This document shows, piece after piece, positions 55,969 to 62,379 of a stretch of DNA of 64,000 bases. The stretch's first letter is position 1; each line of letters starts with the position of its first letter. Under the pieces are notes generated by a model that made no database searches, was not told the DNA's origin, and saw only the letters and a program-made list of their open reading frames with translations. The stretch is from Eubacteriales bacterium. Its GTDB lineage: Bacteria; Bacillota; Clostridia; Oscillospirales; QAKW01. The DNA lies in contig JAZQDW010000056.1 in assembly GCA_045546995.1 (NCBI GenBank), positions 3,701 to 67,700 on the forward strand. Direction: 5' to 3'. Both the position numbers and the translations under genes were made by a program.

Positions 55969-56005
55969 AAAAATCGTCTGAAGAAATCTCTTCAGACGAT
56001 TTTTT
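55968..56005. terminator. Bidirectional terminator
   Basis: AAAAAATCGTCTGAAGA-aatc-TCTTCAGACGATTTTTT. Confidence 0.85.
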
Positions 56006-56261
56006 TAATAATAAAAATAATGACAGCTGCTTGCAGTACCAAAATCAAGGGGATTCCCAGTACAAAATACCAATGTCTTGTTTTGTGGCGAATGGCGTGC
56101 ATGGCAAGAAGACAGCCCGGGCTGCCACCGAGCAATGCCAGCAGAAATAGCGTTCGTTCCGAAATGCGCCACTTGCCGTGTGCGGCCCGGTATTTATCTA
56201 CGCACCAGACAATGATGGCAAGAACGTTGATAAGGATCAAATAAATTTCAAAATATATCAT
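55992..56261 (-). CDS. DUF1294 membrane protein
   Basis: DKYRAAHGKWRISERTLFLLALLGGSPG...RHKTRH. Confidence 0.92.
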   Translation of the reverse strand: MIYFEIYLILINVLAIIVWCVDKYRAAHGKWRISERTLFLLALLGGSPGCLLAMHAIRHKTRHWYFVLGIPLILVLQAAVIIFIIKKIV

Positions 56262-56271
56262 AGCGTTTTTC

Positions 56272-56721
56272 TTACAGCGTTTCCAAAAAAATATCGATTA
56301 ACGGCGGCTCAACGGATAATAGGGCGGCCATTTGCGTTCGTGTGGTGCCATCGGCCGCCAATTGTCGCACCTGTGTTTCATCCAGTAAAAGATGGGCGGC
56401 AAATACGTTTGCTTCATACTCCGGCTGGGAGGAAAGGTCGTATAAAACCGTCTCTCGTACTCCATCTTGTTTTGCCAGATGGGCGTGCAGGATGTGATGC
56501 CCCAGCTCATGGGCCAATACGATTTTTGCCTCGGTCTCATGGAGGCTTTCATTCAGTACAATAAAAGGATTGCCCAGCATGATGCTGTAAAATCCTTTTA
56601 GGGAACCCAGATCTGCATATTTGATTCCGATGTCCAACTCCCGTGCGATCTGCAGGGGATCACGAGTTTGTAAACGCTGAATCAAAAGCTCTGCTTGTTG
56701 TTTACTGTATGCTTTCGACAC
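56272..56721 (-). CDS. ImmA/IrrE family metallo-endopeptidase
   Basis: TRDPLQIA, LKGFY, LAHELGHHILH (HExxH), EYEANVFAAHLL; GTG 56721 after AGAAGG. Confidence 0.93.
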   Translation of the reverse strand: MSKAYSKQQAELLIQRLQTRDPLQIARELDIGIKYADLGSLKGFYSIMLGNPFIVLNESLHETEAKIVLAHELGHHILHAHLAKQDGVRETVLYDLSSQPEYEANVFAAHLLLDETQVRQLAADGTTRTQMAALLSVEPPLIDIFLETL

Positions 56722-56725
56722 CGTT

Positions 56726-57112
56726 TCAGTCCTTCTTTTCTTTCTTTTGATTTTTGCGTTTGGCATCCCAGTACAGCTGATTGATAGCGCTCAGCACCTT
56801 ATCCATATCCTCTTGGCTTAATTCGCCGCCGGAAAACAGGCTGCCGGCCCGCACGATCAACTCCTTGGCCTGATAGGCGGCCTCCTGCTGAGGCGGAAGC
56901 TCGGTATCGGCGGTAATGTCTCCCAAAAGATAATCGGTGCTGACGCCGAATAATTTGGCAATGCGGCCGTAAATTTCCGTTTGTTTGGGATAGATCTTAC
57001 AGGTTTCATAATTTTGCAGGGTGCGCAGGGAAACCCCCAATTTGTCCGCCAACGCGCTTTGGGTCAGATGATTTTGGATGCGCAGAACCTTTAATTTTTC
57101 TCCGAATTTCAT
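56726..57112 (-). CDS. XRE family transcriptional regulator
   Basis: MKFGEKLKVLR...LTQSALADKLGVSLRTLQNYE...VSTDYLLG; helical C-domain LFSGGELSQEDMDK; ATG 57112 after GGAGG. Confidence 0.93.
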   Translation of the reverse strand: MKFGEKLKVLRIQNHLTQSALADKLGVSLRTLQNYETCKIYPKQTEIYGRIAKLFGVSTDYLLGDITADTELPPQQEAAYQAKELIVRAGSLFSGGELSQEDMDKVLSAINQLYWDAKRKNQKKEKKD

Positions 57113-57128
57113 AAAAAAGCCTCCAATA

Positions 57129-57238
57129 CGAAACAAATTTCGCAAAAACTATTTACAACGCAGGTTGTTTCGTGTATAATAAAAACAAGACGAAACAACT
57201 TTCATATATATCTTATCATTGAATTACGCAAAAGTCAA
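57129..57238. promoter_or_regulatory. Overlapping face-to-face promoters with three operator boxes
   Basis: P-dinB TTTACA(57152)-N17-TATAAT(57175); P-xre (minus) TTGACT(57238)-N17-TAAGAT with extended TG; boxes at 57129-57142, 57159-57172, 57191-57204. Confidence 0.75.
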
Positions 57239-57250
57239 GGAGGAAAGCGG

Positions 57251-58492
57251 ATGGAACGAGTGATATTGCATTGTGATATGAATAATTTTTATGCTTCGGT
57301 GGAATGTAAGCTTAATCCGTCCATCCGTAGCAAATACGTTGCCGTTTGCGGCAATACGGCCGAACGGCACGGAATCGTGTTGGCTAAAAATCAACGGGCG
57401 AAGCTGAAAGGCGTCAAAACCGGACAGGCGATTTGGGAGGCGAAGTTGCGTTGTCCCGATCTGATCGTAGTGCATCCTCATTTTGATCAATACGCCCGCT
57501 ATTCCAAACGCGCCAGGGAAATTTACTATCGTTTCACGGATATGGTCGAGCCGTTTGGTATGGATGAATGCTGGCTGGACGTGACGGCATCGGTGGCGCT
57601 GTTCGGCAGTGGAGAGGAAATCGCTGAAATGATTCGCCGGACCGTGAAACGCGAATTGGGGTTGACCATCTCTATCGGCGTTTCATTTAATAAAATATTT
57701 GCAAAGCTGGGCTCGGATCTGAAAAAACCGGATGCGATCACCGTCATTCGCAGGGAGGACTTTCGGGAGCGAATTTGGGATCTGCCGGTGGAACAATTGT
57801 TGGGCGTTGGCCGTTCCACCCTTAAAAAACTTAAAAATATCGGCGTGCTGACGATCGGTCAGCTGGCTCAGTATCCCAGAGAATTTCTCGTTGCCAAATT
57901 CGGTAAAAACGGCGGCGCTTTGTGGGATTATGCCAACGGACTGGAAAACAGCAGGGTAACGGATCACGATAGTTACGCTCCCATCAAAAGTATCGGACAC
58001 GGTATTACCACGACCGGAGATCTGACCGATCAACGGCAGGTATGGCGATTGATGCTGGAACTTTGTCAGGAAATTGCGCGAAAATTACGGAAAAATAGGT
58101 TGTCCGCCTCAGGCGTGCAGGTAAGTATTAAAAATCATGAATTGACGGTGCAGGAATTTCAGGCGCGGTTTACCTATCCGCAGCAAAGCGCCATTGCTCT
58201 TGCCAAACTTGCATATAAGTTATTTTGTAAACGGTACGATTGGCGTAGTACGGTGCGGGCGGTCAGCGTTCGTGCCATTGCGCTGGTGGATGAAACGCAT
58301 CCCACACAGTTGGATCTGTTTTCTGATTTGCAGGGGACCGAGCGACAGGATAAAATCGACCGTGTGGTGGATAGTATTCGATTGCAATACGGAGAGCAGG
58401 CGGTGCGGAACGCAGTATTGCTGCAGGACCTTAAAATGCCTCGGATCAAGCAGGAGCCGATGCTGCCGGGCACATTTTTCAGAAACACTTGA
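57251..58492 (+). CDS. dinB: Y-family DNA polymerase IV
   Basis: LHCDMNNFYASVE, GMDECWLD, KIFAKLGSDLKKPD, KSIGHG; beta-clamp motif QLDLF. Confidence 0.95.
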   Translation: MERVILHCDMNNFYASVECKLNPSIRSKYVAVCGNTAERHGIVLAKNQRAKLKGVKTGQAIWEAKLRCPDLIVVHPHFDQYARYSKRAREIYYRFTDMVEPFGMDECWLDVTASVALFGSGEEIAEMIRRTVKRELGLTISIGVSFNKIFAKLGSDLKKPDAITVIRREDFRERIWDLPVEQLLGVGRSTLKKLKNIGVLTIGQLAQYPREFLVAKFGKNGGALWDYANGLENSRVTDHDSYAPIKSIGHGITTTGDLTDQRQVWRLMLELCQEIARKLRKNRLSASGVQVSIKNHELTVQEFQARFTYPQQSAIALAKLAYKLFCKRYDWRSTVRAVSVRAIALVDETHPTQLDLFSDLQGTERQDKIDRVVDSIRLQYGEQAVRNAVLLQDLKMPRIKQEPMLPGTFFRNT

Positions 58493-58517
58493 CAAAAGGA
58501 TGCTTTTAGGATATAAT
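58489..58517 (+). promoter_or_regulatory. sigmaA promoter of the CNNM leader
   Basis: Perfect TTGACA-N17-TATAAT; the -35 overlaps the dinB stop codon. Confidence 0.88.
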
Positions 58518-58555
58518 GATGCCGCATTATATTGAAAAGGAGAAATTGCAAACAA

Positions 58556-58681
58556 ATGGACAGCGACAGTAGCGACGAAGAAAACTGTTTTCGATCCAAG
58601 TATTGTTTATATATGGCATATCTGTCACCTATGTTTGGTTACAGATATGCCTTTTTGCGTTTAAATCGCATTCGTAGCTGA
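58556..58681 (+). CDS. Putative acidic leader peptide (41 aa) MDSDSSDEENCFRSKYCLYMAYLSPMFGYRYAFLRLNRIRS
   Basis: AAGGAG at 58537-58542, ATG 13 nt later; ORF runs through the leader terminator. Confidence 0.5.
   Translation: MDSDSSDEENCFRSKYCLYMAYLSPMFGYRYAFLRLNRIRS
58615..58656 (+). terminator. Intrinsic terminator (attenuator) in the 5' leader of the CNNM gene
   Basis: GGCATATCTGTCACC-tatgttt-GGTTACAGATATGCC-TTTTT, lying between the promoter and the CNNM start. Confidence 0.85.
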
Positions 58682-58731
58682 AGGGATATGGACTTTAACT
58701 GCAATATAAACAACGATAGAGGAGTAAAACG

Positions 58732-59967
58732 ATGACTGTATATATAATCATAATGTTGGCGTGTGTTATTATGTCTGCCTACTTTTCAGCAACGGAAACT
58801 GCGTTTTCCTCGCTGAACAAAACAAAACTGAAAACTCTGGCGGAGGAGGGCAATCCTCGCGCCGCCCTGGCCGTCAAATTGAGCGATGCTTATGACAAGC
58901 TCATCTCGACGATTTTGATTGGTAATAATATTGTAAATATTCTGGTGGCTTCTATTGGTACGGTGTTTTTTACACAACTTTTAAAAGACGGTGATATGGG
59001 CGCAACGATGTCGACCGTAGTAATCACCGTAGTGATTTTGATCTTTGGCGAGATCACTCCTAAAAGTATAGCTAAGGATATGCCCGAACGGTTCGCTATG
59101 TTTTCGGGCCCCATCATTCAGTTTTTTGAATGGGTATTTTTACCGCTGAATTTCCTGTTTGGTCTTTGGAAAAAACTGGTTAATAAAATTATCAAGACCG
59201 AGGATGACTCGAAAATGTCGCAAGCAGAGCTATTGATGTTTGTAGACGAGGTTGAACAGGATGGCAGCATTGATGAAAATGAAAGCGTACTGCTGAAAAA
59301 CGCTATTGAATTTACCGAGCGTCGGGCTGAGGATATTTTGACCCACCGCGTGGACATCGAAGCGGTTTCGGTGGATACAGATAAAAGGGAAATTGCCAAG
59401 ATCTTTACGCAAATGCGATTTTCCAGAATGCCGGTCTACGAGGAAAGCATTGATAATATCGTCGGTGTCATCCATCAAAAGGATTTGTATGAAAACGGCG
59501 AGCTGACGGATAAACCGTTGGAAGAATTGATGAAACCGGCATTGTTTGTACAGCGTGGCGGTAAAATTGACGATTTGCTGCAAAAACTGCAAAAAAACAA
59601 GTCCCACGTTGCCATTGTTGTGGATGAATACGGCGGCACGTACGGACTGGTGACGATGGAAGATATTCTGGAAGAATTGGTGGGCGAGATTTGGGACGAG
59701 CACGATGAGGTGATCGTACCCTTTAAAAAGATTGCCGACCGTACCTATACGGCGGACGGCACGGCTGAGGCTGAGGCGTTCTTTGAATACTTCGGCATAG
59801 AAAGCGAAACGGAAAGCGTTTCTGTCGGCGGCTGGGTGATGGAACAACTTGAAGAGGTTCCCGAAGAAGGTGCCACCTTCGTATACGATGATTTTGAGAT
59901 CACGGTTATGGAGATCGAAATGCACCGTGTTACAAAAATCAAAGTGATCGGCACCAGAAAAAAATAA
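58732..59967 (+). CDS. CNNM/CorC (HlyC/TlyC-like) Mg2+ transporter: DUF21 + 2 CBS + CorC_HlyC
   Basis: [58 protein letters not shown]. Confidence 0.94.
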
Positions 59968-59970
59968 AAT

Positions 59971-60003
59971 AAAAGCGAAGTGGTAACAACCACTTCGCTT
60001 TTT
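59971..60003. terminator. Bidirectional terminator between convergent CNNM genes
   Basis: AAAAGCGAAGTGGT-aaca-ACCACTTCGCTTTTT. Confidence 0.85.
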
Positions 60004-60006
60004 GAT

Positions 60007-61281
60007 TTATTCTTCCTCTTCTACGGGAGGGGTAACGGTAATCTGTAGGAACTGTACGCGTCGTTTGCGCATTTTATGTACCTTTAGCTCCAGATTTTCG
60101 TAGATAGCAGTATCACCGACCTTGGGGTATCTGCCCAACAGTTCGACGATCCAACCTCCCATGGTGATGTTGTCATCATCAAAATTGCGTTCGTCTTTTT
60201 CGATTTCGTCAAAGAAATCCATAATACGCATATCGCCGACAACCTCGTAAACGTTCTCTTTGATCTGCTTGCATTCCTCGACGATCTCGTCGCTTTCGTC
60301 CCAGATATCGCCTACCAGCTGTTCCAGTACGTCCTCCATGGTCAAGATGCCCATCACGCCGCCATACTCATCGGTGACGACGGCCAAATGACGGTTTTCC
60401 TGCCGCATGCCTTTTAAAACGTCATCTAAGGGCATGGTTTTATGAATGTAGTATACACTCATCAGACGATTACGCAGATCCAGCTTTTCGCCGGCAACGA
60501 CGTCCTTTAAACAGGAGTTGAGATGGAGAATGCCAATGATATTATCAATGGTATCCTCATAAACGGGGATACGGGAATAAGGGGAGGAGTAGAGAGTTTG
60601 CATGATCTCCTCTTCACTGTCATCAACGTCGATGGCGATCATGTCCACACGGGGTGTAATGACCTCATAGGCCAGCACGTCGTCAAAATCCAGCGCACTT
60701 TGTAACAAATCGGCGCTGTTTTCATCAATAACGCCTTCATCCTCAACCGTTTCAATAATGGTTTCAAGATCGTCCTCGGTTACGCTCGGCTCATCCTCTT
60801 TCTTCGCTTTTCTCCATAAGAGGGAAAAGAGGCGGACGATAGCCTCCGAAACCAATACGATGGGACGGGTAATGATCATCATAACGTACAGGGGAATTGA
60901 AACCAGGGTGCTGAATTCGTTGGGAATCTGCTTTGCAACGATTTTGGGCAACGTCTCACCGAAAATCAGTACGATGACGGTCATTACAATAGTAGAAATG
61001 GTAGAGGCCCAGGCAGCGTATTTAGTTCCTTCCAGCCAGCCGATCACGATCAAGGTGGATACAGCGGAGGAGGCGATGTTTACCAGGTTGTTGCCAACCA
61101 AAATAGTACCCAGGGCACATTCATAGTTTTGATAGATGTGAAACGCCAGACGGTGATGCAACTTGTTCTTTTCTTCCGTTGCCGCCTTCAGCCGCCGCTC
61201 GTTTGCGGAAGCGTAGGCGATTTCCGAAGCGCTGAAATAGGCCGAAAAACAAATGAAAATTACAATCAGGAGGTAATTCAT
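60007..61281 (-). CDS. CNNM/CorC family transporter: DUF21 + 2 CBS + CorC_HlyC
   Basis: SAYFSASEIA, TILVGNNLVN, IFGETLPK, YSRIPVY, TDEYGG, TMEDVLEQLVGDIWDE. Confidence 0.94.
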   Translation of the reverse strand: MNYLLIVIFICFSAYFSASEIAYASANERRLKAATEEKNKLHHRLAFHIYQNYECALGTILVGNNLVNIASSAVSTLIVIGWLEGTKYAAWASTISTIVMTVIVLIFGETLPKIVAKQIPNEFSTLVSIPLYVMMIITRPIVLVSEAIVRLFSLLWRKAKKEDEPSVTEDDLETIIETVEDEGVIDENSADLLQSALDFDDVLAYEVITPRVDMIAIDVDDSEEEIMQTLYSSPYSRIPVYEDTIDNIIGILHLNSCLKDVVAGEKLDLRNRLMSVYYIHKTMPLDDVLKGMRQENRHLAVVTDEYGGVMGILTMEDVLEQLVGDIWDESDEIVEECKQIKENVYEVVGDMRIMDFFDEIEKDERNFDDDNITMGGWIVELLGRYPKVGDTAIYENLELKVHKMRKRRVQFLQITVTPPVEEEE

Positions 61282-62309
61282 ACGCCGACACCTCCCTTGA
61301 TGTCTTCCTCGTCATAAATCTCGCCAACCAGCTCTTCCAAAATATCCTCGATGGTAATGATACCCAAGGCCTTGCCTTTGTTGTCAAGAACGACCGCCAG
61401 ATGAACACGGTGCTGACTCATACTTTCCAGCAACTCGTCTACCGCCTTACCCTGTTGAACAAAGTGTGGCGCAGAGATCAGCGGCTGAAGTTCGGGAGCG
61501 CCGTCTTTAAGATAAGCGCGCAGATAATTGCGGATGTGCAGAATACCGACCACCTTACCGTTGGGGTCGGTGACGGGGAGACGGGTAAAAGGGGTCTCGC
61601 GAATGGCAGCAATGATCTGATCGGGCGTCATATCGTTGCAGATAGTGGTTACATCGCTCATAGGGGTAAACACTTCGTGCACCACTGAATCGGTAAATTC
61701 CAAAACGGACTGGATCAAATCGCCGGTATCCTCGTCAATTTCACCCTCCTGCACAACCGTTTCAATGATGTCGTGCAGTTCTTCTTCCGTAACGGTGGGT
61801 TGGACGGTGGCTTTTTTAAGAAACGGCCGGCTGAGCAGATCACCCAACAATGTAAATAAAAAGCTGATGGGTGTAAGCACCTTCATTAAAAAGATCAGCG
61901 AACCTGCAATGTTTTTTGCAAAGGCCTCGTTACAATCCTTGGCAAAGCATTTGGGGATCATTTCTGAAAACTGGAATACGATCACTGTGGTCAGCAGGGT
62001 GGAAACGGTCTGGATCCAGGAAGGCCAATCGGTATGCTGTTGCAGCAACTGATAGGTCATGGTTGTTGCAATGGCGGAACAACCGATGTGGGCAATGTTG
62101 TTGCCAATAAGCAGCGTGGTCAGCGCCTTGTTGAAATTGTCCAGAATATACTGAACACGCTTGGCCTTCTTATCGCCATCATCTACTTGTCCGGCAATGC
62201 GGATCTTATTAACGGAAGCAAGGGCGATCTCCGCTCCTGCAAAATAACCGCCTGCCAAAATCAGTAAACAAAATAAAACTATGCTCGTCGTACTTCGCGC
62301 GGGGTCCAT
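61278..62309 (-). CDS. CNNM family protein: DUF21 + 2 CBS, lacking the CorC_HlyC domain
   Basis: [49 protein letters not shown] then stop; ATGA overlap with the next gene. Confidence 0.9.
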   Translation of the reverse strand: MDPARSTTSIVLFCLLILAGGYFAGAEIALASVNKIRIAGQVDDGDKKAKRVQYILDNFNKALTTLLIGNNIAHIGCSAIATTMTYQLLQQHTDWPSWIQTVSTLLTTVIVFQFSEMIPKCFAKDCNEAFAKNIAGSLIFLMKVLTPISFLFTLLGDLLSRPFLKKATVQPTVTEEELHDIIETVVQEGEIDEDTGDLIQSVLEFTDSVVHEVFTPMSDVTTICNDMTPDQIIAAIRETPFTRLPVTDPNGKVVGILHIRNYLRAYLKDGAPELQPLISAPHFVQQGKAVDELLESMSQHRVHLAVVLDNKGKALGIITIEDILEELVGEIYDEEDIKGGVGV

Positions 62310-62379
62310 AAATGGAACCAACTCCTTTATGATTTGTAATAAAAAATATTATACTATATATTCATATAATATGCAAGAA

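Follow-up and report, generated by a model that had tools for sequence, protein, structure and literature searches.

A conserved acidic leader peptide over a terminator-type hairpin: a candidate ribosome-operated attenuator of CNNM transporter genes in Clostridia

We analysed a window of 64,000 nucleotides (nt; the whole stretch of DNA studied, whose numbering is used below) from an Eubacteriales bacterium (assembly GCA_045546995.1, contig JAZQDW010000056.1, positions 3,701 to 67,700 of the forward strand), and in it the leader of a gene for a membrane protein of the CNNM/CorB-CorC family. The gene (58732..59967, plus strand, as are all leader features) encodes 411 residues with Pfam CNNM, CBS and CorC_HlyC domains, and has the Shine-Dalgarno (SD) sequence GAGGAG (58719..58724) 7 nt before its ATG. 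Upstream, a sigma-70/A-type promoter, TTGACA-17-TATAAT (58489..58517), matches the consensus at 12 of 12 positions and overlaps the stop codon of a dinB-type polymerase gene. The SD sequence AAGGAG (58537..58542) stands 13 nt before the ATG at 58556 of a predicted, unannotated upstream open reading frame (uORF) of 41 codons (58556..58681), an open frame with homologues elsewhere. Five of its first nine residues are Asp or Glu; this stretch of acidic and small residues (58556..58582), a predicted ribosome-destabilizing sensor, is the sole conserved part of the peptide. Wholly inside the uORF lies a terminator-type hairpin of 15 base pairs with one mismatch and a 7-nt loop (58615..58651), present in both the minimum-free-energy and centroid folds and followed by five T (58652-58656) and then GCG. 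The short U-tract bears a pause-like signature, G(-10)...T-rich...G(-2) Y(-1) G(+1) (58649..58659), from which a pause is predicted. Promoter, SD, acidic uORF and enclosed hairpin had all been proposed in a first-pass annotation of the window, and sequence and fold bear them out.

A simple terminator scan did not list the uORF hairpin (0 found), and the uORF has no Pfam match. Four Rfam matches at the leader (E-values 0.9-5.9) lie far under their gathering scores and were taken as chance, in agreement with the earlier remark that no M-box or other riboswitch is recognizable. Starts of the form MD[SGD][DSG][SDE][SDE] occur twice in the genome; of the two, only that of the uORF has an SD. An RNA run was uninformative, with a 0.07 share of the words and contigs that left the uORF and hairpin uncovered.

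A set of CNNM homologues was assembled by protein alone, from 30 loci in 41 genomes and the best 80 regions from 301 genomes of the order, giving 110 loci; L208, a fused or partial match, was left out of the identity-band and loose-test counts. At 52% identity or more to the window protein, an SD and a uORF starting with MD or VD precede 36 of 38 loci (window included), so the predicted conservation of such a uORF before clostridial CNNM genes holds. Between 44 and 52% identity the leader is found at 5 of 41 loci, with other D/E/P-starting uORFs at 11 more at least, and below 44% at 0 of 31. By falling identity band, an automated loose uORF test gave 36/38, 20/40 and 6/31, against 199 of 1611 genes of the genome. 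A search blind to the peptide placed the MD/VD start at the best SD, or within 0.1 kcal of it, at all 30 loci of the highest band with a call; eight loci of that band gave no call. From these comparisons, it is near certain that the conserved leader is real. Over 401 genomes of the class, a looser pattern gave 11 matches, namely 6 real leaders (window included) and 5 chance ones, with 2 in a reversed control; the sequence family is therefore patchy.

To these loci we added those found in a genome collection by a pattern that joins the first codons to the hairpin ends, which matches at least 120 loci, with about 160 estimated. Removal of 14 duplicates left 137 leaders (41 protein-found, 96 pattern-found), 132 of which could be anchored; L008, L160, L170, L172 and L178 could not and were left out. 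Position 2 of the peptide is Asp in 129 leaders and Glu in 3, partly by selection of the set; D, S, G, N and A make up most of positions 3-7. Three or more acidic residues among small ones are found in 95 of the 132 (23 of the 36 protein-found), versus 1 of 1633 crudely called N-termini of the genome; the small-residue test is based on residue volumes. An in-frame stop codon more than 15 nt before the 5′ arm of the hairpin occurs in only 2 of 132 leaders, against 48.2 expected from shuffling and 67 and 50 in the other two frames, in line with the earlier suggestion of a conserved uORF that overlaps the terminator. The stop thus falls at most 15 nt before that arm, or later, in 130 of 132. Over all 132 leaders, it lies before the hairpin in 28, within it in 55 and beyond it in 49. 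Judged by this distribution, the frame must reach the hairpin but need not pass it. Leader lengths run from 16 to 56 codons, and the spacer from 44 to 85 nt.

The hairpin itself is well kept. Among the 36 protein-found leaders, 30-36 are paired at each of eleven outer stem positions (the anchor pair being chosen by folding), and inner positions change on both sides: TA in 24 and CG in 8; GC in 15, AT in 9 and CG in 3; CG in 14 and TA in 13. Behind it, the tail reads G-Y-Y-T5-G-Y-G at a fixed register. The two bases that close it lie outside the pattern; they read YG in 119 of the 132 leaders and in 70 of the 83 without a read-through frame, against 35 of 391 genome-wide; the whole tail motif occurs at 2 of 317 terminator-like sites of the genome. 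By alignment, the SD spacing has a median of about 11 where the uORF starts with ATG (97 leaders) and is 8 where it starts with GTG (35 leaders); the mode in the genome, by crude start calls, is 6-7. The long spacing at the window uORF, which the first-pass annotation had counted as a weakness, is by this alignment a conserved trait and not a defect; a literature search on SD spacing and ribosome drop-off gave nothing relevant. Two further ideas were set aside. Cysteine sensing was rejected, as Cys is absent from residues 1-20 in 49 of 132 leaders and occurs once there in 52. Codons 2-11 form a small hairpin in the window fold, which is unsupported as a general feature.

For folding, the ribosome was modelled as an unpaired block of 31 nt, an assumed footprint. 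The hairpin forms with a probability above 0.8 in all 132 free RNAs, and still does so in 130-131 of them when codon 1, 4, 8 or 12 is occupied. Once at the stop codon, the ribosome blocks it in 76 of 83 leaders, the other 49 frames running beyond the hairpin; in the window leader, it is lost with a ribosome from codon 17 onward. Upstream of the hairpin there is no notable structure (median z 0.06; 8 of 132 below -2), and folding of the 132 leaders gave no antiterminator or competing fold. There being none, only a ribosome that translates up to the hairpin could prevent it. Provided that the uORF is translated, as we infer, the leader is very probably, on this sequence evidence, a ribosome-operated attenuator in which translation promotes read-through.

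The likely signal is suggested by the peptide. N-terminal runs of D, E or P among small residues abort translation by intrinsic ribosome destabilization (IRD), which low Mg2+ enhances; E. coli YbeX/CorC starts with such an Asp/Ser-rich segment, proposed to raise efflux at high Mg2+ (bioRxiv 10.1101/2021.02.02.429294). High Mg2+ induces corC and mgpA in Salmonella, through a mechanism called unclear (PMC12421838). MpfA of S. aureus is tied to the export of Mg2+, be it as the exporter itself, which is unsettled, or as a regulator (PMC6711546).

We lean, at somewhat better than an even chance, towards an attenuator whose main signal is Mg2+-dependent ribosome drop-off. RNA polymerase would pause at the short U-tract, which would give the waiting time needed in an uncoupled Firmicute. 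At low Mg2+, an unstable ribosome would fall off within about ten Asp/Ser-rich codons and the hairpin would terminate transcription; at high Mg2+, a stable ribosome would reach about codon 17 and cover the 5′ arm, and the exporter gene would be transcribed. A weak initiation site, with a long SD spacer or GTG, would set the threshold. Such a logic, inverse to that of known importer leaders, had been put forward in the first-pass annotation: the part in which translation blocks the hairpin is the only one that folding permits, and the N-terminus does resemble the IRD segment of YbeX, while the reading as a whole is partly supported.

Several known systems share features with this leader. The uORFs MgtL (of mgtA, in E. 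coli and Salmonella) and CorL (of corA) have acidic or Pro-containing N-termini that abort more at low Mg2+ and thereby set the expression of a Mg2+ transporter (PMC11552253; bioRxiv 10.1101/2021.02.02.429294). The present uORF is likewise short, with a small-residue N-terminus rich in D, E or P within its first ten codons. At mgtA, however, an importer is shut off, through Rho and alternative stems, when the uORF is translated efficiently, whereas here translation would turn a probable exporter on by covering an intrinsic-type hairpin; the targets are CNNM or P2A ATPase genes, no alternative fold is found, and the MgtL peptide carries EPDP while ours is rich in D, S, G and N, with no Rfam match. 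The N-terminal segment of YbeX/CorC shares with the leader its Asp and small residues, the transporter family and the proposed sign (more at high Mg2+), but it lies within the protein and acts on translation only, whereas here a separate uORF is tied to a terminator.

The output is closer to the pyrBI leader of E. coli, pyrL, in its geometry: a terminator within or just after the leader frame, in reach of the ribosome, with no need for an antiterminator. There the signal is UTP supply, acting on polymerase pausing. The pyrL leader serves a pyrimidine operon, whereas the genes here are those of transporters, the proposed signal is ribosome survival, and the lineage bears a signature of uncoupling; in pyrBI, a ribosome catching up with the paused polymerase prevents the hairpin (PMC5021804, PMC4824070). 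The vmlR leader of B. subtilis, with a uORF, a NusG-dependent pause and an intrinsic terminator (PMC9226507), is likewise a case of Firmicute uORF attenuation that depends on polymerase pausing, which for our leader is a prediction. In vmlR, an antibiotic-stalled ribosome favours an antiterminator, whereas here an early stall would leave the terminator in place; the persistence of the hairpin with ribosomes at codons 1-12 sets the leader apart from attenuators of the trp and vmlR type. YoaL, before mgpA/yoaE in Salmonella and E. coli, is also a uORF upstream of a gene for a CorC-domain protein, in its case one induced by high Mg2+, and loss of its start codon lowers expression (PMC12421838). 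It overlaps the region upstream of mgpA and its reported effect is on translation. The M-box (ykoK, RF00380) is also a Mg2+-responsive leader of Firmicute Mg2+ transporters, but it is an RNA aptamer and was found neither at the leader nor elsewhere in this 98.9% complete genome.

In its input the leader is thus like MgtL and YbeX, and in its output like pyrL, while falling outside both groups. A literature search, with most subscription papers outside its reach, found no description of the element, and there is none in the available parts of PMC11552253, PMC13009471 and PMC11109978. It is probably an undescribed attenuator, with sensing of the MgtL/YbeX type and an output of the pyrBI type. 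CNNM leaders of a second kind, whose D/E/P-rich starts are nearer to the EPDP of MgtL, are seen at L184, L190, L192-L197, L199, L204, L205, L207 and L211, several of these having no clear terminator by the detector used. L183 and L201 carry tandem leaders, in which an ME-starting uORF with the terminator comes first and an Arg-rich uORF starting with MD follows, ahead of the CNNM gene; at L187 only this second uORF is present.

Downstream of the 120 pattern matches listed lie 96 CNNM genes (26-86% identity to that of the window), 10 P-type ATPase genes, three of them assigned from short N-termini, 1 YtvI gene and 3 sequences too short to assign; 10 matches were dropped as chance. The base before TG, outside the pattern, is a purine in all 110 matches that were kept and in 3 of the 10 that were dropped, the choice of which to drop having partly drawn on such features. 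Among the 80 matches listed by lineage, those kept are of Clostridia-type lineages, for example Eubacteriales, Oscillospiraceae, Acutalibacteraceae and Lachnospiraceae, with one 'Bacillota bacterium'; a cultured carrier of the leader is Neglectibacter timonensis (L092). No recognized Mg2+ importer stands behind a terminator-type leader among the matches listed. The window CNNM has its best sequence match in the PDB in 7m1t (E 4e-51), with no NCBIfam model over its cut-off; because of the MpfA and CorC papers, we regard it as a probable exporter of Mg2+ or another cation, by analogy. The leader precedes a P2A-type ATPase gene at L251 (1693-4344) and at L064, L086, L101, L103, L106 and L116. For the full-length ATPase of L251, the highest scores are those to models of P2A Ca2+ pumps, at 693 and 661 bits (below cut-off), against 417 for MgtA, and its best PDB match is Listeria LMCA1; by these scores the leader-linked ATPase is P2A-like and not MgtA-like.

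Several results weigh against a Mg2+-responsive attenuator. As to the sample, the 132 leaders are kin, forming about 81 clusters at 75% identity, so that counts overstate independence, and 96 of them come from the pattern search, in which part of the motif was preset. In the folding, 7 of 83 terminating ribosomes leave the hairpin unblocked under the assumed footprint. A further point is coupling. Of the 317 terminator-like stems of this genome, 163 begin no more than 12 nt from a stop codon, a proxy for runaway, uncoupled transcription; terminators in the first 100 nt of a reading frame are near fully efficient even in E. coli (PMC7858274), and the U-tract of our uORF lies 96-101 nt from the ATG. 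The caveat about transcription-translation coupling raised at first pass is thus a real one: simple coupling is unlikely, and a pause is needed.

Pause features common to the E. coli and C. difficile polymerases are G-10, a T-rich stretch from -9 to -3, g-2, Y-1 and G+1, and C. difficile NusG enhances halting in 5′ untranslated regions (bioRxiv 10.64898/2026.05.06.723315). The leader tail fits these features except at -11, where the base is T and not G or C. The motif TTNTTT occurs 25 times in the spacer, against 12.7 expected. A polymerase pause at the U-tract is in this way predicted from base composition and register.

Leaders of mgtE offer a comparison on the import side. The mgtE-like gene of this genome passes the Pfam cut-off, while its TIGR00400 score of 202 bits is below cut-off; an SD and a 19-codon, MD-starting uORF lie 100 nt upstream of it (L252:795-895; G000:C71 16795-16895). 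In its leader, a hairpin hides the mgtE SD, and the anti-SD arm of that hairpin is able to pair with RNA of the uORF (p 0.007). Of 47 mgtE loci, 18 have an MD-starting uORF, 15 of these with small residues, against 72 of 1611 genes; they are less acidic, with a mean of 1.3 D/E. At L253, an M-box (148-304) and an MD-starting uORF (391 onward) stand in tandem before mgtE. A mirror image of the CNNM logic at mgtE is partly supported by the models. By equilibrium folding, just 2 of 20 leaders behave as predicted and 4 clearly in reverse; in the duplex test, pairing of uORF RNA and anti-SD arm exceeds shuffles in just 5 of 16, this genome included. More tentatively, and with a good deal of doubt, Mg homeostasis in gut Clostridia might be largely ribosome-sensed: one family of Asp/small-residue leaders would have opposite outputs within one cell, a pause-gated terminator turning CNNM and P2A genes on at high Mg2+ and an SD-sequestering switch turning mgtE off, with the pause restoring coupling locally.

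A smaller but appreciable chance goes to the same attenuator with a signal that is not mainly Mg2+, such as polyamines, K+, pH, an EttA-like ABCF factor or the supply of charged Asp, Ser or Gly tRNA. Its targets speak for it: some CNNM proteins score best to the model of the polyamine exporter PaeA, the ATPase of L251 has Ala at the Asp of the LMCA1 NLVND motif, so that any substrate assignment is tentative, and one target, L114, is a YtvI-family membrane protein. (The L114 leader has the most distant stop of all, 21 nt short of the hairpin.) IRD may answer other ribosome stresses (bioRxiv 10.1101/2021.02.02.429294), and EttA rescues ribosomes at early acidic residues (PMC11282234). A general point against the Mg2+ model is that acidic pairs alone do not always destabilize the ribosome (PMC11282234). 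Codon usage is peculiar as well: in codons 2-9 of the 132 loci, Ser is AGY in 176 of 181 cases versus 39% in the genome, which the Mg2+ model does not predict, and Asp is GAC in 327 of 409. Against a codon-level signal, third positions vary, and codons for Ala and Glu and the GGA and GGG codons of Gly are present; selection for small and acidic residues fits better. The related uORFs before mgtE, one of them behind an M-box, also argue for Mg2+.

The ribosome could instead act at another step, either in a Mg2+-sensitive initiation at the long-spaced SD or in mRNA processing or decay at the hairpin. The uncoupling signature, the mere five U and the conserved SD spacing would suit this, but the U-tract keeps a fixed register after the hairpin, and initiation by itself would need neither a frame open just up to the hairpin nor an acidic N-terminus; we hold it to be unlikely. 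Still less probable is a switch at the level of RNA, by a riboswitch of a new kind or a protein antiterminator on the conserved outer stem, the uORF being incidental. The outer stem is indeed conserved in sequence beyond the needs of pairing and codon bias is strong in the first codons; yet there is no Rfam match, no signal of upstream structure and no competing fold, the spacer length varies, and stops are avoided in one frame only.

There is very little to be said for the uORF as a functional small protein, or as a coupler of CNNM translation through a second short frame. In the first case, one phase over the hairpin is common to 42 of the 49 frames that read through it (and to 18 of the other 83), which the attenuator model does not predict, and frames in that phase end in a similar short motif; the wide range of lengths and the stops before, in and beyond the hairpin tell against it. 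In the second, the short frame pointed out at first pass exists (58688..58735) and overlaps the CNNM start by ATGA, but it is probably incidental and no part of the device: only 1-2 nt separate its SD-like run from its start codon, which is missing at this place in the closest relative, L002 (86% CNNM identity). With the uORF stop at least 48 nt from the start of the coding sequence in 34 of 36 loci, translational coupling through this frame was rejected.

That the hairpin, the first after dinB (57251..58492, plus strand; Pfam IMS domains; context only) in the window, merely terminates dinB and encloses a frame by chance can be practically dismissed, as dinB lies upstream in just 2 of the 16 closest loci read, the other upstream genes differ and those of L005, L006 and L009 are divergent, so that the hairpin travels with the CNNM leader; moreover, promoter-like sites lie within 100 nt upstream in 109 of 130 leaders and downstream of the hairpin in 2 of 132. 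By its distribution, then, the hairpin belongs to the CNNM leader and not to dinB, contrary to the refuting case named at first pass. In the window (55992-58492), dinB is divergent from a small gene that we take to be helix-turn-helix-like and a gene with a HELGH motif, possibly a damage-inducible repressor/peptidase pair.

Acidic N-termini are found on the CNNM proteins themselves, as the first-pass annotation had remarked, and more commonly where no uORF is present: by crude start calls, position 2 is D or E in 28 of 55 cases when the locus lacks a uORF and in 11 of 41 when it has one, against 5% in the genome. The window holds two further CNNM paralogues on the minus strand (60007-62321), in one operon convergent on the regulated CNNM gene. 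The first has a probable start at 62309, with Met-Asp-Pro, 12 nt past an SD and directly behind a promoter-like site, with no uORF; by its sequence, it possibly carries the sensor within the protein. A hairpin flanked by A and T runs (59971-60003) separates the convergent CNNM genes, a few bases past a stop codon; by these features, it is a terminator of the bidirectional type and an example of the uncoupling signature.

How bacteria induce Mg2+ exporters is largely open, and the leader is a compact candidate answer for a large group of gut Clostridia. If the Mg2+-responsive attenuator is true, ribosome drop-off is used here with a sign opposite to that in MgtL. The leader would also be a clean case of ribosome control over an intrinsic terminator where the polymerase seems to outrun ribosomes. 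For the family at large, the acidic N-termini of many CNNM/CorC proteins are suggested to be a regulatory signal, which either the protein itself or a separate uORF can carry. The leader of about 200 nt would, if the model is confirmed, be usable as a Mg2+ reporter for anaerobes.

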